The position numbers and the translations under genes are program-made. From assembly GCA_024654575.1 (NCBI GenBank), contig JANLHG010000014.1:88745-152744 (forward strand): DNA of 64,000 nucleotides, read 5' to 3'. The notes below the pieces were generated by a model. The model had not been told where the DNA came from, made no database searches, and was given only the letters and a program-made list of their open reading frames with translations. The DNA is from Patescibacteria group bacterium (GTDB lineage Bacteria; Patescibacteriota; Minisyncoccia; Phycocordibacterales; PALSA-1337). Positions within the stretch are counted from its first letter, which is position 1, and the number at the start of each line of letters is the position of its first letter. Of this stretch, positions 37,054-62,592 are shown in pieces.

Positions 37054-37353
37054 AGCGGGATAGAGTAACAGTAATTCGCAAGGCTCAATTTGGGCTCATT
37101 TCTTAGTAATAAGATATTGATATTTCGTCAAAGTCGGTGAAACCTATTTTTAAAATGATTGGTAATACCGAGCCAAGTTCTAATTTTTATTAGAAAAGGT
37201 GTAGAGACTAGACGGCGAACATCCTGAGTAGTAATTACGAAGGATGAAGGTATAGTCCAGACCACAAATTTGTTATTATGTAGCAAAGCGATGCAAATCG
37301 TAGCGGTAAGCATAACCTTGAGATCTGGGTGCGACTCCCGGTCCCGCAACCAC
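37054..37353 (+). ncRNA. Structured RNA with a tRNA-like 3' domain (T-arm, acceptor, ACCA); candidate tmRNA (ssrA)
   Basis: The 3' end CTGGG-TGCGACT-CCCGG (T-arm) then TCCCGCA-A-CCA. A complementary 5' AGCGGGA lies at 37054-37060, followed by AATTCGCAAGG resembling the tmRNA GAUUCGACGGG element. CAAGG/CCTTG pairing brackets the body as a P2 helix would. The downstream hairpin with T-runs on both strands marks the transcript end. The ORFs called here in the six-frame track are rejected. Confidence 0.35.
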
Positions 37354-54621: not shown

Positions 54622-55176
54622 ATGAAAAAAAGTACATGGATTTGGATAGGTGTTATAGTTATTTTGGCTCTCTACAGCTGGACTAGTTATAACGGTCTCG
54701 TTGGTTCAAATGAGGGAATTGATAATCAATGGGCACAAGTTGAAGCACAATATCAGCGTCGTTTGGACTTAATTCCTAACCTTGTTGAGTCAGTGAAGGG
54801 AGTAATGAAGCAAGAACAGACTGTGTTTAATGATATCGCTCAAGCTCGTACTCAATATGCAGGAGCGAAAACTGTTGACCAAAAAGCTCAAGCTGCTACA
54901 AATATGGAAGGTGCATTGGGTAGATTGTTAGCTATTGTTGAAAATTATCCGCAATTAAAATCTGCCGATACGGTCCAAACACTTATGTCGCAACTTGAAG
55001 GAACAGAAAACAGAGTCAGTGTGGAAAGAAAAAGATTTAACGATATGGTGCAAGTGTATAATCTAAAAACGAAGCAATTCCCAAGTTCAATTTCAGCAAA
55101 ATTATTCGGATTTGCTTCACATTCGTATTTTGAGTCGGTTCAGGGGGCAGAAGTAGCACCAGAAGTGAAATTCTAA
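54622..55176 (+). CDS. lemA: LemA family protein
   Basis: N-terminal TM followed by a LemA-like region (NQWAQVEAQYQRRLDLIPNLVE). Confidence 0.85.
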   Translation: MKKSTWIWIGVIVILALYSWTSYNGLVGSNEGIDNQWAQVEAQYQRRLDLIPNLVESVKGVMKQEQTVFNDIAQARTQYAGAKTVDQKAQAATNMEGALGRLLAIVENYPQLKSADTVQTLMSQLEGTENRVSVERKRFNDMVQVYNLKTKQFPSSISAKLFGFASHSYFESVQGAEVAPEVKF

Positions 55177-56057
55177 TGAAGAGATTTTTTGTTACAGCTT
55201 TTTTTGTCACGTTTGCTATTCCTGTAATTAGTTTGGCGTATAAAAATCCGGGTAATCCATCTGGTTTTGTTAATGATTTCGCTAAAGTTTTGACTGTTGA
55301 ACAGAAAAACGTACTGGAGCAAAAACTTTCTGCATTTGAACAACAAACTAGTAATGAAATTTCTATTGTTACCATTCCGACACTAGACGAAGATACTATT
55401 GAAAATTATGCTGTGGCACTTTTCAAAGATTGGGGAATTGGAAAAAAGAAAAATGATAATGGAGTTTTGCTTCTTGTTGCAATCGGTGACCATAAAATGA
55501 GAATTGAAGTTGGGTATGGACTGGAAGGGGCGTTAACGGACGCTATAAGTTCCGATATTATTCGCAATACACTGACACCTGCTTTTAAGAATAATGATTT
55601 TTATGGTGGCATTGATAAAGCAGTTGATAGTATGATTTCTGCTACTAAAAATGAATATTTATCAACTAATCAAAGTAATAATCAGACGTCAAATGATATT
55701 GGTGGTATTTTAGTTATTGCATTTTTTACAATTCATATTTTGATGTGGGTTGCTAGTGTTCTAGCGAGGTCAAAATCATGGTGGGCAGGGGGAGTTGTTG
55801 GAGCAGTAATGTCTATATTTATAGGAATATTTTTAGGGTTGTTTGCTTTTGGTGTTGCTCTTGTTTTATTTATTCCGTTCGGATTACTTTTTGATTTTCT
55901 TGTTTCAAGAATCTATGGTGCACGTAAAATAAATGGTCTGCCTATACCTTGGTTTATTGGAGGTGGACGAAGAGGTGGAGGACGAGGAGGGTTTGGAGGT
56001 TTTGGTGGCTTCGGTGGGGGCGGTTCGGGAGGTGGGGGTTCAAGTGGTGGATGGTAG
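55176..56057 (+). CDS. TPM-domain (YgcG-like) protein with C-terminal TM helices and a Gly-rich tail
   Basis: TPM-like region (GFVNDFAKVLT...EISIVTIPTLD) forming the usual lemA-TPM pair. Confidence 0.75.
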   Translation: MKRFFVTAFFVTFAIPVISLAYKNPGNPSGFVNDFAKVLTVEQKNVLEQKLSAFEQQTSNEISIVTIPTLDEDTIENYAVALFKDWGIGKKKNDNGVLLLVAIGDHKMRIEVGYGLEGALTDAISSDIIRNTLTPAFKNNDFYGGIDKAVDSMISATKNEYLSTNQSNNQTSNDIGGILVIAFFTIHILMWVASVLARSKSWWAGGVVGAVMSIFIGIFLGLFAFGVALVLFIPFGLLFDFLVSRIYGARKINGLPIPWFIGGGRRGGGRGGFGGFGGFGGGGSGGGGSSGGW

Positions 56058-56182
56058 CACTTCAATTGGGCTAAATCAATTTTGTATTCAAAATTAATCG
56101 CTCGACCTTGCTTTGCAAGGTTTAGGGAAGGTTCGCATTGTGCCTCTACGGCACATCCGCCGATGAGGCGGAAGCTAGTAAA

Positions 56183-56440
56183 ATGTATTACTGTTATATT
56201 TTAAAATTCAAAAACGGAGGAAAACTTTATTGTGGATTTACTTCTGATTTAAAAAGAAGGATAAAGGAACATAAATCTGGTTATTCTAATTTTACTTCAC
56301 GAAATGGTGATTTCGAATTAATATTTTATGAAGCATATAAAAACAAAGAAGATGCAAAGGAGGCAGAAAGATATTTCAAAAGCGGTCACGGTAGAGAAAT
56401 TTTAAAAGGAAAATTGAAAAATTATCTCACTTCATTGTAG
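56183..56440 (+). CDS. Small GIY-YIG nuclease-domain protein (UPF0213-like)
   Basis: MYYCYILKFKNGGKLYCGFTSDLKRRIKEHKSG...E. Confidence 0.75.
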   Translation: MYYCYILKFKNGGKLYCGFTSDLKRRIKEHKSGYSNFTSRNGDFELIFYEAYKNKEDAKEAERYFKSGHGREILKGKLKNYLTSL

Positions 56441-56473
56441 AATAAAATAGCGCCTCATTGGTGCTTAGTAAAT

Positions 56474-56561
56474 GGAAGGTTCGCATAGCGGTCTAGTGCG
56501 CACGCTTGGAAAGCGTGTGTCGCCTTATCGGCGACCGAGGGTTCGAATCCCTCACCTTCCG
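56474..56561 (+). tRNA. tRNA-Ser (GGA), long variable arm, CCA not encoded
   Basis: GGAAGGT...anticodon loop TTGGAAA...variable arm GTCGCC-TTATC-GGCGAC...T-loop TTCGAAT...ACCTTCC-G. Confidence 0.9.
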
Positions 56562-56670
56562 CCTTCGCTCGCCGAAGCGGCGAGCTACGGCGGACAAAGT
56601 CCGCAAGTAGCTTGTCGCGAAGGAGATATGAAAAGTGATAAGATGTAAGAACCCTAAAAGGATTCGAACT

Positions 56671-57093
56671 ATGGAGAAAGACTTCTCAAAAAATTTAGTT
56701 AAGGACTATACATACTGGAGTGTCTATGTACACGAAAACCAAGGATATCTTGGTCGTTGTGTCATTTGATGCAAAAGAGAAGATGCTCTTGATTTGCCAG
56801 ATGCTACCCAAAAAGAACAGAAGGAATTATTCGAAGTTTTAAACGATCTCAGAAAGGTCTCAAAGGAATGCTTTAGCGCCGACTGGTTAAATTATGCCTT
56901 CCTAGGGAATGAGACACGACACTTACACGGACATTTTATTCCACGCTACGCTACACCAAAGACTTTTGAAGGAACAGTATTCGAAGATAAGTTGTATGGA
57001 CATAATTATAAAACTGACCACGGTTTTGTAACATCAGAAGAGCTTTTACAAAAAATAAAAAATGCTTTAGTAATTGCATATGAAAAAATCTAA
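56671..57093 (+). pseudogene. HIT-family (histidine triad) gene interrupted by an in-frame TGA at 56767-56769
   Basis: N-part MEKDFSKNLVKDYTYWSVYVHENQGYLGRCVI, then TGA, then in the same frame CKREDALDLPDATQKEQKELFEVL...ETRHLHGHFIPRY (HxHxH-like). The two parts together form a complete HIT-like domain. Confidence 0.5.
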
Positions 57094-57144
57094 GCACAAA
57101 AAGCAATTTGGTTTTGTTTGTACCTCGCACAATCCACTGCTAAA

Positions 57145-57159
57145 ATAAAATGCTATAAT
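57145..57159 (+). promoter_or_regulatory. Extended -10 promoter ATAAAATGCTATAAT, 6 nt upstream of the ATG (leaderless mRNA)
   Basis: TGcTATAAT; it is identical to the 15-mer at 57929-57943. Confidence 0.5.
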
Positions 57160-57165
57160 AAAAAT

Positions 57166-57897
57166 ATGAAAACTAGTAAGAAAATTTCTATTACCGCACT
57201 TGTGGCGATTTTGGCAGCTACGGGATATGGTGGCTACACTGTAATTAAAGAAAGTGATTTGGCGGGGATGCGTTCTGGGCAGGCACCGCTTTATAAAGTA
57301 GCGAGAGTGATAGACGGAGACACTTTTGAGCTTCAAGATGGAGATGTGGTACGCCTCTTAGGCATAGATGCCCCAGAAAAAGGACAATGTTTTTACAAAG
57401 AGTCCAAAGACGCACTTATAAAATTAGTGGAAGGCAAAGAGGTGGAGCTTAGAAAAGACGTTACGGGTACAGACGATTTTAGTCGCCTGTTGCGTTATGC
57501 GATTTTACCAAGTAAAAATATTTTAAATAATAGTGTTTTAGTAGATGAATATATGGTAGAAGGCGGATATGCAGATATACGAAGCGACCCTAGAGATAAA
57601 CTTTTTTACGGCATTCTTTTAGAAAAACACGAGCAAGCACAGAAAAGTAATAAAGGCCTTTGGGGAGCTTGCGATTATGAGCCGAGCGAGCACAGCCAAA
57701 AGGACATCGCACCTCTTAATAAAAATTGTACTATCAAAGGCAACATCTCTACAGGTTCATTTGGTAAGACATATTTTGTGGAAAGTTGTAATAATTACGC
57801 TCAAGTCAAAGTAGACCCCACTCGCGGAGAACAATATTTCTGTTCAGAAAAAGAAGCCATTACGGCCGGTTTCATCAAAGCCCGCTATTGTCCATAA
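57166..57897 (+). CDS. Thermonuclease (SNase-like) family protein with an N-terminal TM anchor and a Cys-containing C-terminal extension
   Basis: ARVIDGDTFEL...VRLLGIDAPE...ELRKDVTGTDDFSRLLRY. Confidence 0.8.
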   Translation: MKTSKKISITALVAILAATGYGGYTVIKESDLAGMRSGQAPLYKVARVIDGDTFELQDGDVVRLLGIDAPEKGQCFYKESKDALIKLVEGKEVELRKDVTGTDDFSRLLRYAILPSKNILNNSVLVDEYMVEGGYADIRSDPRDKLFYGILLEKHEQAQKSNKGLWGACDYEPSEHSQKDIAPLNKNCTIKGNISTGSFGKTYFVESCNNYAQVKVDPTRGEQYFCSEKEAITAGFIKARYCP

Positions 57898-57928
57898 GTG
57901 GAGTAACTATCAAAGATTGGCATGCGTA

Positions 57929-57943
57929 ATAAAATGCTATAAT
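57929..57943 (+). promoter_or_regulatory. Second copy of the extended -10 promoter ATAAAATGCTATAAT, 6 nt upstream of the ATG at 57950
   Basis: Identical 15-mer. Confidence 0.5.
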
Positions 57944-57949
57944 GAAAAA

Positions 57950-58204
57950 ATGATAGATGAAATAAAAGAGGAAAAAGAGAAACTGACAATGGAAATGCGG
58001 GAACGCTCGATTGGCTATATTGCTGGAGCATTTGGTTTAGTTGCTGGTCTCGCGTGGAATGATGCTATAAAAGCGTTTATAGAATATCTTTTTCCTTTAA
58101 GTAAAAATACACTCGTGGCGAAATTTATTTATGCCTTGATTCTTACTGTAGTTGTGGTGGTAGTAACGACGTATATTTCACGTCTTTTTAGTAAAAGAAA
58201 ATAA
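57950..58204 (+). CDS. Small membrane protein, hypothetical
   Basis: 84 aa with two hydrophobic helices. Confidence 0.4.
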   Translation: MIDEIKEEKEKLTMEMRERSIGYIAGAFGLVAGLAWNDAIKAFIEYLFPLSKNTLVAKFIYALILTVVVVVVTTYISRLFSKRK

Positions 58205-58258
58205 TGTGCTAGAATGCGTGTCAGATAGTTTAACCCTTAACCAAGGAGTTCTTTTTAT

Positions 58259-59218
58259 ATGAATATTAGTAAAGGAATAAACGGGGAGGATGGTGAATCC
58301 ATCAGTGCGTATATGAGAGACATATGCACTATCCCTTTATTAAAACAAACGGAAACAATTGAATTGTTTCAGGAGTTGGGTAAAGCCGACAATGATATTG
58401 TTTACAATGAAATAAGAAATAAAATCATTGAGCATAATTTGCGATTTGTTGTACCTATCGCAAAAAAATATGTTGGGTACGGACTGAGTTTCCTGGAACT
58501 AATTCAAGAAGGAAATCTCGGTCTGATGAGAGCGGTAGAACGTTTTAAACTCAGTAAGGGTTTTAAATTGACTACTTATGCTAGTTGGTGGATAAGACAA
58601 GGCATAACACGAGCTATTGCCAATAAATCAAGAACGATTCGTATTCCAATACATGCATTGGATCGCAGACGTCATTTGTTACGTATTATTGACGAACTTA
58701 TTGACGAGTTGAATCGCGAACCCTCGGTCGCTGAGATTGTAGCAACAACAGGAGAATCAGAGACATTTATCATACGATGTTTTAATCCTGTTGTGACGAC
58801 ATCTTTTGATGCCTCAGTATCATCTGATGGAGGAAAAGATACTACTGTAGGTGACCTCATAGCAGATGAACACGCAGTTGACCCATCAGGTGAAATTGAC
58901 CAAAAAATGCTTTCTTCAGCTTTTGAACAGGTTTTGAGTACACTTAAACCAAAAGAAGAGCAGGTGTTGAGAGACCGTTTTGGTTTTTCAGACGGTGGGC
59001 AAAAACTGACACTTGAAGAAATCGCTAAAAAAATGGAAGTGACTCGCGAAAGAATTCGCCAAATTGAAACCAAGGCGCTTCGCAAACTCAGGACACCGTC
59101 AAGACTCAAAATGTTACTCGGTGATTCTGGACTATCCCCATCTGATCTTAATGGTGATACATGGGAGGATACCAATGTAAGGTTTAAAAAACCTACTAAA
59201 CGCAATCGAAATTCATGA
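58259..59218 (+). CDS. RNA polymerase sigma-70 family factor (compact primary-like)
   Basis: Region 2 ([34 protein letters not shown]...YASWWIRQ) and region 4 ([29 protein letters not shown]). Confidence 0.85.
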
Positions 59219-59271
59219 GGACTACTTTAATCGGTGGTCCTCTTTTTATTTAGGGTATAATAAAATAATCT

Positions 59272-59715
59272 ATGACTTCAAAAGATATTAAAATATGTAT
59301 TGTCGGATTATTATTTTTGATTTTAATATTTTTAGGTATTTCAGATAAAATATCGCATACCCCTAAACTTTATTTTGAAGATGTAAAAGTTAATTTAATA
59401 ATTGCCGATACTGAAGATAAAAAAGAAAAAGGATTGGGAGGATTTGTGTCACTTCGTTCTGATAATGGAATGCTTTTTGTATTTTCGGAATTAGGTATCT
59501 ATTCGTTCTGGATGAAAGATATGCAATTTCCTATTGATATAATATGGCTTGATGAAAAATGTGTCATTACTCATATTGAAAATAATATAAGTCCAGAAAC
59601 ATATCCAACAGCATATTCATCTAATAGTAATTCGCTTTATGTACTAGAGATTGGTGCAGGATTTGTGAAGAAAAACAATCTTAAGGTAGGGGATACTTGT
59701 GTTTTACAAAAGTAG
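59272..59715 (+). CDS. DUF192-family membrane-anchored protein
   Basis: KGLGGFVSLRSDNGMLFVF...FWMKDMQFPIDIIWLDEKCVI. Confidence 0.5.
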   Translation: MTSKDIKICIVGLLFLILIFLGISDKISHTPKLYFEDVKVNLIIADTEDKKEKGLGGFVSLRSDNGMLFVFSELGIYSFWMKDMQFPIDIIWLDEKCVITHIENNISPETYPTAYSSNSNSLYVLEIGAGFVKKNNLKVGDTCVLQK

Positions 59716-59735
59716 ATAAATAGTATATAATATCG

Positions 59736-60192
59736 TTCTCTTTGTATCGGGTAGTTGCTCTTTGGCTAAATCAATTTTTAATTGATCGCTCAAGGGAGGA
59801 AAGTCCGAACACAACCTCATTTAGCTTTATGCAAAGTGGGGAGCAGAGTAGTGGGTAACACCCATCCAGAGCAATCTGCGAGGTGCGAACAGTGACGCTT
59901 TTTTTCGAAAGGAAAAAAGTATCCTACATTTGTAGGATAAATATCATGGTAACATGAGTGCTAAACCCAATGAGAATTTGTCTCATTGGGTCGCACGAAC
60001 ATTTTGCAGAGCAAAATGTTTTAGTGCAACGGCTAAATCCTTACTTTTGTGCAAGGCCGTGTCCGCCGTTAAGCCTGCCTGCGCAGGTAGGGCGGAAGTG
60101 CCGCTAGAGCCCGAGAGTAATCAAGGGCCCAGATAAATAGCTATCTCTGCCGTTGAGGCGGAACAGAATTCGGCTTATAGATATAAAGAGAA
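59736..60192 (+). ncRNA. rnpB: RNase P RNA (bacterial type), enlarged by extra hairpins
   Basis: P4 strands AGGGAGGAAAGTCCGAAC and ACAGAATTCGGCTTAT; P1 pairing TTCTCTTT/AAAGAGAA. A TATATAAT -10 lies at 59724-59731 and a terminator hairpin at 60199-60234. The internal ORF 59954..60136 is rejected. Confidence 0.85.
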
Positions 60193-60198
60193 TATGAT

Positions 60199-60234
60199 AA
60201 AGTCCCGAGCGAAAGCGAGGGACTTTGTCTTTAT
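60199..60234 (+). terminator. Rho-independent terminator after rnpB (AAGTCCC...GGGACTT + TGTCTTTAT)
   Basis: 7-bp stem with a 12-nt loop, followed by a T-rich tract. Confidence 0.55.
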
Positions 60235-60282
60235 AATGCTTTCATATTATAATTAATATAATTTAAATAAATAAATAAAAAG

Positions 60283-62592
60283 ATGAATAATCCAACAAAA
60301 TTTGATAGTTTAGCGTTTTATGTATTTTTGATTTTAGTTTTCGTTTTACCGTTTTTCTTTATTCCATCAACATCAGTGCCTTTTCAAAATACTAAAACAA
60401 TATTAGTCGTGATGAGTACATTAGTTATATTTTTTGCATGGATTATTTCTTTACTTAAAAATCCATCTTTTAAAGTTTACAAAACATCTCTTATACCGGT
60501 AGTACTAGCTCTTTCTGTTGTTGCGATTTTAGCTGGATTATTTTCAGGTAATTTTGCAAAATCTTTTATTGGGCAAGGTTTTGAAGTAGGAACAATGATA
60601 TTTATTACTGTACTAGTTTTGTTATTATTCATAACACCATACGTATTAAAAAATCGCGATAGAATATTATATGTCTACTTGGCTTTCATATCATCTTTTC
60701 TTCTTTTAGCATTTTTTCAGATTGGACGACTGGTTTTTGGTGAAAATTTTTTATCTTTCGGAATTTTTAATTCAGTGACGCAAAATCCCTTAGGTAATTG
60801 GAGTGAATTAGGAATATTTTTTGGATTATCGGCGATGTTATCTGTGATAACTCTTGAACTTCTTACTTTTACAAGAGGATTTAGAGTACTTTTGTATATA
60901 GCTTTAGCATTATCACTTTTCTTGTCAATAGTCGTTAATTTTAGCTCAATATGGTATGTGCTTGGAGTTTTTAGTATTGTATTTTTTGTTTATCTTATAT
61001 CCTTTTCGGTAAAAAAAGTTTCTTACATTTCTTTGGTTACTTTACTAGTATCTTTGGTACTTATATTTGGAGGTGATTCTGTGAGTGCTAAAATTAACGA
61101 CTATTTTAAAGTTCAGAATGTTGATGTTAGACCATCGTGGTCTGCTACGTTTAGTGTGGCTAAGAATACTTTAAAAGAAAATTCTCTTCTTGGTTCTGGT
61201 CCAAATAGGTTTGCAAATGAATGGTTAAAATGGAAGCCGACTGGATTAAATAATACTGTATTTTGGAATACAGATTTCAATTATGGCATTGGTTTAATTC
61301 CAACATTCTTAGTTACTCAGGGAGTGTTAGGTATGATAGCGTGGATTGTTTTTCTAGCTTTGTTTATATGGGTAGGTTTTAAATCTATTTTTAAGGTTAT
61401 TTCCGATTCGTTTTCACGTTATCTAATAATTTCGTCTTTCTTTGTTGCTCTTTATTTATGGATATTCTCTGTTATTTATATTCCTTCATCAGTACTCTTT
61501 ACTTTTGCTTTCATATTTACCGGAATCTTCATTGCTTCACTCGCGCATGAAGGATTTGTAAAAACCACAGATATTAAGCTTTTTGAAGAACCGAAAACAG
61601 GATTTATTTCTATTTTGAGTTTAATATTGGTTTTAATTCTTTCGGTTACGGTTGGATATGTGTCTCTCAGAAAGTATGTCGCAAGTATTTATTATAATTC
61701 TAGTTTGGTAGAGTTTAATAAAAATGCAGATTTGTCTTTGGTTTTATCTGGTATTAATAGTGCTGTAAAAATGAGTCCATCTGATTTATATTACAGGTCT
61801 CTTTCTGATATTGATATAGCAAGAATGAATGAATTATTGAATAAAAAAGATATATCAAATGAAGAAATGAGAACAGCTTTTCAAGATATTCTTGGTAATG
61901 CTATATCTAATGCAGAGCAGGCAATAACTATAGATTCTACCAATTACCAGAATTGGATGTCTTTAGGTCGTGTTTATGAGACGGTTTTACCGTTAGGTGT
62001 TTCTAGTGCGTATGAGAATGCTAATGTGGCTTATAGTCAGGCCTTGAATCTTAATCCACAGAGTCCAGCTTTACTTTTGATTTTAGCACGCCTTGATATT
62101 GCAAATAAAAAATTTGATACTGCAAAACAATATATAAGTAGAGCTCTTAATGCTAAAAATGATTATACAGAGGCAATTTTCCTTCTTGCTCAAATACAAG
62201 TTAATGAGGGAAATATTAAAGACGCTATCAGTTCTGTAGAAGCAGCCGCCTTTATTTCTCCAAACGATTCAGGGGTATTTTTTCAGTTAGGAGTACTTCG
62301 TTATAGTAATAAGGATTATAAGGGCGCTATAGACGCTTTGGGTAGAGCTGTTGCCTTAAACGATTCTTATTCAAATGCTCGATATTTCTTGGGACTCTCT
62401 TTTGCTCAGTTAGGAGATTATGCTGGAGCAGTTGATCAATTTAAGGTTATTGAAAAATTTAATCCAGATAATGAGGAAATAAAACTTATTTTGAAAAATT
62501 TATTAGCTGGTAAATCACCATTTACTAATGCAACTCCACCTGTAGATAGTAAGCCAGAAAAGCGTTCTACATTGCCGATAAAAGAAAAATAA
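60283..62592 (+). CDS. Polytopic membrane protein (O-antigen-ligase-like core) with C-terminal TPR repeats
   Basis: About 12 TM helices followed by a roughly 300-aa TPR-like region (AYSQALNLNP...ALNAKNDYTEAIFLLAQ...). Confidence 0.45.
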   Translation: MNNPTKFDSLAFYVFLILVFVLPFFFIPSTSVPFQNTKTILVVMSTLVIFFAWIISLLKNPSFKVYKTSLIPVVLALSVVAILAGLFSGNFAKSFIGQGFEVGTMIFITVLVLLLFITPYVLKNRDRILYVYLAFISSFLLLAFFQIGRLVFGENFLSFGIFNSVTQNPLGNWSELGIFFGLSAMLSVITLELLTFTRGFRVLLYIALALSLFLSIVVNFSSIWYVLGVFSIVFFVYLISFSVKKVSYISLVTLLVSLVLIFGGDSVSAKINDYFKVQNVDVRPSWSATFSVAKNTLKENSLLGSGPNRFANEWLKWKPTGLNNTVFWNTDFNYGIGLIPTFLVTQGVLGMIAWIVFLALFIWVGFKSIFKVISDSFSRYLIISSFFVALYLWIFSVIYIPSSVLFTFAFIFTGIFIASLAHEGFVKTTDIKLFEEPKTGFISILSLILVLILSVTVGYVSLRKYVASIYYNSSLVEFNKNADLSLVLSGINSAVKMSPSDLYYRSLSDIDIARMNELLNKKDISNEEMRTAFQDILGNAISNAEQAITIDSTNYQNWMSLGRVYETVLPLGVSSAYENANVAYSQALNLNPQSPALLLILARLDIANKKFDTAKQYISRALNAKNDYTEAIFLLAQIQVNEGNIKDAISSVEAAAFISPNDSGVFFQLGVLRYSNKDYKGAIDALGRAVALNDSYSNARYFLGLSFAQLGDYAGAVDQFKVIEKFNPDNEEIKLILKNLLAGKSPFTNATPPVDSKPEKRSTLPIKEK

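Follow-up and report, generated by a model that had tools for sequence, protein, structure and literature searches.

The 64,000-nt window analysed here (the whole stretch of contig JANLHG010000014.1 that was studied) comes from a metagenome-assembled genome (MAG) of the Patescibacteria, or Candidate Phyla Radiation (CPR). At its tRNA-Ser(GGA) gene it carries what we take, with a probability of roughly 0.6, to be a member of a widespread group of selfish, homing-type GIY-YIG cassettes residing in the 5′ part of Patescibacteria tRNA genes. Comparative anatomy shows that the unit consists of a dyad-symmetric pair of GC-rich hairpins (H1 and H2), an 85-aa nuclease gene and a 3′ copy of the first ~13 nt of the tRNA, from which the nuclease also takes, in most cases, its last four residues and its stop codon. 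It is placed at a loop position of the tRNA gene, here 13|14 in the D-loop, with the displaced 5′ fragment left upstream and the carried copy regenerating the tRNA downstream. The upstream fragment may put the nuclease gene under the transcription of the tRNA.

The cassette is bracketed by GGAAGGTTCGCAT, which is found at 56126-56138 as the displaced tRNA-Ser 5′ fragment (left direct repeat) and at 56474-56486 as positions 1-13 of the intact tRNA-Ser(GGA) gene (right direct repeat; the gene spans 56474-56563, ARAGORN, Rfam 55 bits), all cassette features being on the + strand. The two copies are identical at 13/13 positions, GGAAGGTTCGCAT occurs exactly twice in the window, and no exact copy arose in 100 dinucleotide-preserving shuffles, so that the repeat of the tRNA 5′ end reported in a preliminary description of this DNA is real. 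That description was also right in that the 335 bp between the repeats contain one real open reading frame (ORF), that of the 85-aa GIY-YIG protein, and otherwise hairpins only. The left repeat is followed by H1 (56139-56155, TGTGCC-TCTAC-GGCACA), which has a 6-bp stem and a loop of the TCNNC class, as defined by alignment and pair counts, and by H2 (56156-56172, TCCGCC-GATGA-GGCGGA), which has a 6-bp stem and a loop of the GNNGA class and resembles the P18 hairpin of the RNase P RNA gene (rnpB). Next come AGCTAGT (56173-56179), a degraded continuation of the tRNA D-loop from position 14 on that reads AGTGGT in most relatives, and the single-domain nuclease gene (56183-56440, with ATG at 56183 and the stop at 56438-56440; Pfam). 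A degenerate H1-class hairpin, A-GCGCC-TCATT-GGTGC-T, can be read from the sequence between the ORF stop and the tRNA (56449-56465). The upstream hairpin CCGCCGATGAGGCGG (56157-56171) and the downstream hairpin GCGCCTCATTGGTGC (56450-56464) do form the imperfect inverted pair described earlier, the reverse complement of the former matching the latter at 11/15 positions. Scans with the Rfam gathering thresholds and with permissive ones returned no family over 56126-56180. The idea that GGAAGGTTCGCAT is a degenerate RNase P P4 motif (GGGAGGAAAGTCCG versus GGGAAGGTTCG) was ruled out by the 13/13 match to the tRNA and by its presence in all relatives. As a separate feature, a GC-rich inverted repeat at 56558-56594, with 17-nt arms that are 88% complementary, begins within the 3′ end of the tRNA-Ser, and the GC-rich sequence continues past 56594 to ~56625, which is unusual for an AT-rich genome.

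A family profile made from 31 homologues of the nuclease retrieved 426 confirmed loci from GTDB contigs (one genome per species); the best 80 of these were examined. In 48 of the 80 loci a tRNA on the same strand starts no more than 130 nt from the end of the ORF (Ser 32, Gln 10, Pro 3, Leu 3), and in another 14 the ORF is preceded by a same-strand tRNA whose end is at most 300 nt away. Gene and tRNA overlap in at least 21 Ser-type loci, in which residue 82 is the last one encoded ahead of the tRNA. That is, the last four codons and the stop, which give the conserved C-terminus GG(V/F)A followed by TAG, are tRNA positions 1-15, and the C-terminal variants GEVA, GRVA and GSVA parallel variants of the acceptor stem. 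Upstream of nearly all such Ser ORFs lies the same module, made up of positions 1-13 of the local tRNA, H1 (family form TGCGCC-TCNNC-GGCGCA), H2 (family form TCCGCC-GNNGA-GGCGGA), AGTGGT (tRNA positions 14-19), 8-31 nt and the ATG; in most Ser loci the tRNA sequence is thus interrupted by a 34-nt gap and resumes at positions 14-20/22. The intact tRNA stands 3′ of the nuclease gene. The Gln, Pro and Leu subfamilies follow this plan with their own tRNA and with breakpoints at 21|22, 15|16 or 13-21, and insertions in the anticodon loop were seen at 36|37 (locus L016) and 37|38 (L080), so the points of insertion always lie in tRNA loops (13|14, 15|16, 21|22, 36|37 and 37|38). Nuclease subfamilies group by target tRNA and hairpin type. 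The window departs from the family plan in having its own ORF stop and a 33-nt spacer before the tRNA, in which the hairpin at 56449-56465 keeps apart an ORF and a tRNA that overlap in most relatives. This hairpin is probably the leftover of a second hairpin module; H1/H2 are found between ORF and tRNA in L038 and L050.

The repeat begins at +1 in some loci and as far out as about -21 in others, giving repeat lengths of 13 to ~34 nt, and positions 3-7 of the acceptor stem vary among loci. In a set of 20 Ser loci, mismatches between upstream fragment and tRNA average 0.25 within a locus and 1.56 against the tRNAs of other loci, and 0 of 10,000 permutations fitted as well as the observed pairing; the fragment therefore tracks the local tRNA. 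A perfect 13-nt copy is present in 16 of the 20. The repeat is a hallmark of the family and not a product of chance.

Some loci of this set show features that stand apart from the common plan. At least 10 of the 80 contigs end within ~170 nt past the cassette-linked tRNA (L005, L009, L010, L028, L032, L033, L044, L049, L057 and L073), which suggests that repeats or strain-level heterogeneity interrupted the assembly at these sites. A distant GIY-YIG subfamily with 44-50% identity (L063-L079, e.g. L076 at 1955-2420, and L067) lies just 3′ of complete tRNAs (Asn, Asp, Ser, Ala and others); the tRNA is succeeded by a pair of longer hairpins with mutually reverse-complementary apexes, and in L076 the 3′ end of the tRNA appears a second time past the ORF, a mirror image of the 5′ design. 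At 3430-3530 of L039, an H1-H2 module is followed by tRNA-Gln(TTG) from position 22 to the end, with a degenerate 5′ part, beside an intact tRNA-Gln, which looks like a dead tRNA copy split by an ORF-less hairpin pair.

Across 30 aligned modules, pairing reaches 99.4% in the two 6-bp stems of the hairpins, neither the inner GCC/GGC base pairs nor the loop classes vary, and 6 of the 12 stem pairs show two-sided changes (16 cells), with zero one-sided or G-U-type changes; when the alignment was slid as a control, pairing fell to 33-48% in all cases. The loop GNNGA is the reverse complement of TCNNC, and each strand accordingly reads 5′-hairpin(TCNNC)-hairpin(GNNGA)-3′. This two-strand symmetry and the Watson-Crick-only exchanges argue for recognition of H1-H2 at the DNA level, possibly as extruded single strands, rather than for an RNA leader. 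Furthermore, of 103 matches to the hairpin core, 92 are found no more than 150 nt upstream of a GIY-YIG ORF, and the motif is thus a cis part of the cassette, not a dispersed repeat. Loop-loop (kissing) pairing between H1 and H2 was considered unlikely, the variable loop positions not being complementary among the loops read.

The product of the ORF matches PF01541 well above the cut-off (E=5.8e-18, 65 bits versus 22.6), and the GIY-YIG domain fills the whole 85 aa, making it a single-domain protein of fewer than 150 aa. Y3, Y5, Y16, R26, H30 and E62 are conserved in a collection of 83 homologues and invariant across 31 homologues; by analogy, these would represent the catalytic Tyr (GIY), Tyr (YIG), Arg, His and Glu. 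Scans against NCBIfam, PHROGs and PADLOC gave marginal generic matches only. The nearest solved structures by profile are the UPF0213 proteins 1zg2 (2e-11) and 1ywl (8e-10), and the nuclease is about equally near to UPF0213 (cd10456) structures and to a relative among the Ssn nucleases. For the latter comparison, small single-domain GIY-YIG genes flanked by NTS repeats were recovered from Neisseria gonorrhoeae and Azospirillum records. The gonococcal gene, which we take to be the SsnA homologue of N. gonorrhoeae, is 38% identical to the nuclease over 64 residues (BLASTP 3e-12, hhalign probability 96.8%). This alignment, made with the presumed gonococcal SsnA, covers 64 of 94 residues (68%); membership of the Ssn family has been defined by a BLASTP E<1e-10 to SsnA with at least 75% coverage, which 68% falls short of, and by cd10448 as the top CDD hit (PMC11893778).

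Ssn enzymes are small single-domain GIY-YIG proteins that cut only single-stranded DNA (ssDNA), beside hairpin repeats (NTS/SRM) that flank their own genes (PMC11893778), and the layout of ssnA, NTS-ssnA-NTS, resembles that of an insertion sequence (Chenal et al. 2025, PMC11893778). The repeats that flank genes of this family are hairpin-forming and 20-50 nt long. The window's gene is likewise flanked by inverted-repeat hairpins, H1 and H2 (17 nt each) upstream and the degenerate H1-class hairpin downstream. It thus shares with the Ssn group (cd10448) a single-domain GIY-YIG protein of <100 aa and hairpin-forming inverted repeats in inverted pairs, in the order hairpin-gene-hairpin. In contrast to Ssn systems, the cassette hairpins have a motif other than NTS, are not dispersed genome repeats, abut one another and lie inside the tRNA 5′ copy, and the C-terminal third of the protein is unlike. 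The Ssn paper makes no mention of tRNA genes (PMC11893778). On these sequence comparisons, the nuclease may be called Ssn-like and is probably related to the Ssn ssDNA nucleases. One locus carries in addition a Neisseria-type repeat: in L038, from an unclassified MAG, a Gln-type cassette is preceded at 2831-2858 by a perfect NTS/SRM repeat (TGTCATTCCCGCGCAGGCGGGAATCCAT), which has an inverted partner close by.

The case for mobility rests in part on occupied and empty versions of the same site. In the window, GroEL, LemA and a TPM-domain gene (55176-56057) precede the cassette region and the tRNA-Ser. A search for contigs with the exact sequences of the GIY-YIG and TPM proteins gave no match, and a metagenome scan with the TPM protein led to the closest relative, L081, from Hainich groundwater (identity to the window: LemA 83%, TPM 77%, DUF192 72%). 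Its order is TPM, 8 nt, tRNA-Ser(GGA), 5 nt, DUF192 and rnpB, with no cassette. The empty site for which the preliminary description had proposed to look in related genomes was thus found in L081, and also in L086 and L090. L022 and L090 form a second such pair, TPM-H1H2-GIY-Nudix-tRNA versus TPM-Nudix-tRNA, that is, presence versus absence at the 3′ junction of TPM. Presence and absence at the same site in related genomes (the window versus L081, L022 versus L090) is one pattern expected of free-standing homing endonuclease genes.

The tRNA genes differ along with the cassette. The tRNA-Ser of L081 has a canonical D-arm and is 69% identical to that of the window, whereas the latter is 86% identical, and 98% in its 5′ half, to the tRNA-Ser of the unrelated L032, and the allele of the window appears to have been replaced relative to L081. 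Its D-arm is of the TC-GCAT-AGCGGTCTA-GTGC type, which is common to every Ser-type cassette-linked tRNA-Ser gene (TC-GCAT-AGYGGTCTA-GTGC). We considered and rejected the possibility that the cassette brings along a special type of tRNA-Ser: the TC-GCAT type also occurs without any cassette or remnant in L086, L090 and L023, so that it is better read as the target type, of which empty examples exist.

Several other loci add to the evidence for mobility. Two or three copies occur in a number of them, L016 being among the multi-copy or frameshifted cases, and the ORFs of L034 and L049 are frameshifted. In L004 the current module is preceded by nested remnants, namely an H1 of older date, ~19 nt from the end of an ORF and tRNA(1-13), an arrangement that would fit re-invasion followed by deletion. 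In L016 the copy that ends ORF1 (GGAGAGG...) differs from the local tRNA (GGAAGGG...), which the outermost fragment matches, and in L002 the upstream fragment is unlike the whole tRNA, whose two acceptor strands agree. Because of these differences, the right-hand copy probably arrives with the element, and the tRNA can apparently be co-converted, as is also hinted at by the tRNA allele of the window. The same logic of duplicate gene ends seems to apply to a protein-coding gene in L084 (3340-3700), where a related GIY-YIG ORF stands between two copies of the TPM 3′ end, both encoding GGxSGRW-stop.

The preliminary description further linked the tRNA-Ser leader to rnpB. The RNase P RNA of the window (59739-60193, + strand; RF00010, E=1e-28) scores 94.5 bits, just below the Rfam gathering score of 100, and was missed by the default scan. 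GGCTAAATCAATTTT is present exactly at 56069-56083 and 59764-59778, where none is expected from shuffles, and the similarity spans 56066-56103 versus 59761-59791 (15/15 and 12/13 matches). At 455 nt, the RNase P RNA of the window contrasts with the 366 nt of that in L081 and has lineage-specific expansions, including an extension of P3; the P3 extension is taken as lineage-specific because the rnpB of L081, which has an identical P1, has a short P3 without the extension sequence. The shared sequence is therefore real, as a local 38-nt duplicate of the distal P3 helix of the genome's own RNase P RNA (56066-56103, + strand), and the idea of a shared leader does not hold, the L081 gene being without that extension. 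In a permissive Rfam scan of 55900-60400, RF00010 was found at 59739-60193 only, and 56066-56103 corresponds to the distal P3 helix alone. No P3-like piece was seen upstream of other cassettes in the loci read, although no systematic screen was made. Between this piece and the tRNA fragment lies a further hairpin, ACCTTGC-TTT-GCAAGGT (56105-56121, + strand; DNA fold of 56058-56182, z = -4.7). In L081 rnpB lies ~470 nt from tRNA-Ser, which indicates that the two were once neighbours and that a 2.7-kb block was inserted in the lineage of the window. We therefore read 56066-56103 as filler or as a local duplication caught during rearrangement of the locus, and the link to rnpB is incidental to the cassette. 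A mini-rnpB pseudogene, for which the order P3 ... P18 might speak, was rejected, as no other rnpB element is there and H2 is a family-wide part of the cassette. H2 with its flank (56156-56173) is 89% identical to the P18 hairpin at 60146-60163. The P18 of rnpB is near-identical to H2 in the window and equals the exact H2 consensus in L081 (2208-2225, TCCGCCGAAGAGGCGGAA), and is different in L041; the comparison covers these three rnpB genes, a number on which convergence and relatedness are not separable.

How might such a unit move? The Ssn-like nuclease would bind the TCNNC-class hairpin of each strand as ssDNA, and nicking 5′ of this hairpin, as SsnA does at NTS, would put the nicks at both edges of the 34-nt module, which are the 13|14 junctions of the tRNA. 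Heavily transcribed, hairpin-rich tRNA genes might expose such single strands, and recombinational repair through tRNA homology would copy the cassette into matching tRNA genes, often co-converting the tRNA, so that, as proposed here, the tRNA-Ser allele of the window would come to be unlike that of its nearest relative.

Several observations weigh against a selfish, homing-type cassette. The intact downstream tRNA retains the presumed target sequence, which poses a puzzle of self-immunity, and the stub of tRNA positions 14-20 after H2 is not needed by a simple insertion model. The protein has no separate DNA-binding domain of the kind with which a free-standing homing endonuclease recognises a long target in the empty allele, all 85 aa being catalytic domain by Pfam. 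The SRM/NTS motif HGTCWY..RNCYNB, which in the Ssn family lies within 500 bp of the gene, has no match in the 64-kb window and is matched in 1 of the 80 loci (L038), while the positive controls L124 and L125 gave several matches each. No relatives were found in the viral contigs searched, and the 64-kb window contains one H1-H2 module and one GIY-YIG gene only, i.e. a single copy. Lastly, the nuclease is about as conserved as GroEL, which would equally suit a useful gene passed on vertically for a long time, and the order GroEL-LemA-TPM-cassette-tRNA-Ser is syntenic in L020, L022, L025 and L028, where GroEL is only 50-68% identical; synteny and conservation at this level call for either long residence or frequent re-invasion. 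Perfect 13-nt copies persist in old lineages.

These last points lead to the rival explanation that survives best, though we regard it as possible rather than probable: the cassette could be a domesticated, vertically inherited module in which the fragment and hairpins act as an RNA leader (for processing, stability or as an RNase P decoy), the transcript co-expresses a small nuclease beneficial to the host with tRNA-Ser, and the repeat is held by selection. Such a nuclease might, for example, regulate recombination or transformation, like SsnA in Neisseria. Besides the synteny in those four loci and the strongly conserved protein with its catalytic residues, it can draw on the 16 of 20 Ser loci that keep a perfect 13-nt copy despite differing acceptor sequences, which is unlike neutral decay, and on the equivalence of H2 with the RNase P RNA P18 hairpin in the lineage of the window. 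It does not account for the absence of the cassette from the closest relative, L081, for tandem, nested, frameshifted and ORF-less remnants, or for a design that recurs on Ser, Gln, Pro and Leu tRNAs and at the end of a protein gene (L084); moreover, stem exchanges of the Watson-Crick type only and two-strand symmetry are unneeded in an RNA leader.

It is doubtful that the family represents a new type of mobility, namely that of a minimal 85-aa GIY-YIG enzyme working without recombinase, intron or separate DNA-binding domain and optionally guided by the 13-21-nt segment. If it did, the hairpin pair would be recognised as ssDNA on each strand, nicks would fall at the hairpin/tRNA junctions and exposed loops would be targeted in tRNA genes that are heavily transcribed. 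Classical transposition, with a target-site duplication left by a fixed staggered cut, is very unlikely. Direct repeats do immediately flank the hairpins and ORF, with a right boundary fixed at 13|14, but the repeat ranges from 13 to ~34 nt and is always the tRNA 5′ end, not an arbitrary target, the tRNA sequence picks up again after the hairpins, the copy differences in L016 and L002 point to donor origin of one copy, and no transposase or recombinase gene was found between the repeats. Of the earlier proposal of a target-site duplication by insertion at tRNA position 13 with regeneration of the tRNA, the insertion and regeneration are borne out by the same architecture in dozens of loci and by the empty relatives. 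The classical target-site duplication is not: its edge varies (+1 to about -21), the tRNA resumes at 14-20, and the copies in L016 and L002 differ.

Even less credit can be given to a mechanism modelled on the guide RNAs that transposons encode, which take their guide segment from the DNA beside them; in this mechanism the tRNA fragment and two-hairpin transcript, or a single DNA strand, would guide the minimal nuclease to matching tRNA genes. Its attraction is that a 13-21-nt segment identical to the target abuts a conserved two-hairpin scaffold and a nuclease gene and co-varies with the target, and that SsnA can be directed by a hairpin built from two separate strands (PMC11893778). Yet evidence of nucleic-acid guidance is lacking for any GIY-YIG enzyme, the protein has 85 aa, a guide would match the cassette's own tRNA too, and the two-strand symmetry of the hairpins favours recognition of DNA by the protein. 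A chance repeat beside an ordinary small gene, which has nothing but the short length of the repeat in its favour, is practically refuted by the zero exact copies in 100 shuffles and by the recurrence of the arrangement in dozens of independent loci, where it tracks the local tRNA.

A selfish GIY-YIG cassette would have partial parallels in several known systems. Like phage T4 SegB (PMC2330249), it is a GIY-YIG gene among tRNA genes whose flanking tRNA sequence is co-inherited with the nuclease gene. Seg proteins, however, are multi-domain with DNA-binding modules, and have no duplicated tRNA fragment, hairpin pair or ORF/tRNA overlap; the cassette family, moreover, is chromosomal in Patescibacteria and absent from the viral contigs searched. 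In the mitochondrial atp6 gene of the fungus Allomyces, as Paquin, Laforest and Lang are said to have described in 1994, a mobile GIY-YIG ORF brings a replacement gene terminus and displaces the resident one, which stays as a duplicate. That case shares insertion at a gene end, restoration of function by the imported copy and persistence of the displaced fragment (compare L084), whereas in the cassettes the target is a tRNA, the 5′ end is regenerated, the end of the ORF is tRNA-encoded and the unit contains conserved hairpins. Islands and prophages of the integrase type also target tRNAs, are flanked by a repeat of a tRNA segment and restore the tRNA with a carried copy. They differ in using tyrosine or serine recombinases, in duplicating the 3′ part of the tRNA and in measuring kilobases, as opposed to a recombinase-free unit of ~0.35 kb at the 5′ part; between the repeats of the window the sole real ORF is the GIY-YIG gene, and the duplicated part is the tRNA 5′ end. 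Nor does the cassette look like a transposon, the repeat of 13 to ~34 nt always being the tRNA 5′ end and no transposase ORF being present.

Closer to home, insertions with GIY-YIG ORFs have been reported in CPR rRNA genes, at the loops or tops of stem-loops, that are not group I or II introns (PMC11270868). Bacterial group and GIY-YIG ORFs in structured-RNA genes are common to both; rRNA, though, tolerates excision without re-ligation, whereas the tRNA version needs the duplicated 5′ segment, and tRNA lies outside that paper. These insertions are plausible cousins of the cassettes. REP/BIME-RAYT and IS200/IS605 systems similarly combine a nuclease gene with inverted-pair hairpin repeats recognised as ssDNA, but have HUH/Y1 enzymes, many dispersed repeats and no tRNA link. 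A literature search found no description of GIY-YIG cassettes with a tRNA 5′ duplication; the cassettes may thus represent a variant of the Ssn-like GIY-YIG/hairpin elements that targets tRNAs, is widespread and for which we found no earlier account.

Downstream of the tRNA-Ser, a HIT-like and an SNase-like gene are followed by genes for a small membrane protein, a sigma factor and DUF192, and then by the RNase P RNA (59739-60193). The HIT-family gene (56635-57093, + strand) has an in-frame TGA at 56767-56769, with ORFs 56635-56769 and 56794-57093 in the same frame and intact neighbouring genes, and could be a pseudogene or reflect a sequencing error or local recoding. A 26-nt repeat, AATAAAATGCTATAATRAAAAWATGA, 92% identical between 57144-57169 and 57928-57953, precedes the SNase-like gene and the small membrane protein gene and looks like a shared extended -10 promoter and start region. 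Further away, at 37055-37352 (+ strand), a group I intron (37076-37275; Rfam, 67 bits) lies between apparent tRNA halves, 5′ GCGGGATAGAGTAACAGTAATTCGCAAGGCTCAA and 3′ ...GGGTGCGACTCCCGGTCCCGCAACCA, for which ARAGORN made no call.

If the proposed reading is correct, the tRNA genes of Patescibacteria would be routinely colonised by a 0.35-kb selfish unit, which would get around the difficulty of entering an essential RNA gene that has no intron by carrying a spare 5′ end, with the first 15 nt of the tRNA supplying the stop codon. Colonisation of this kind may help to account for MAG contig ends at such tRNAs and for allele differences between close relatives. The natural pairs of a mini-nuclease and a hairpin site with defined genomic targets would also be candidate ssDNA tools, and the recently described Ssn ssDNA nucleases, so far without a known role outside Neisseria, would be tied to a concrete mobile-element lifestyle.

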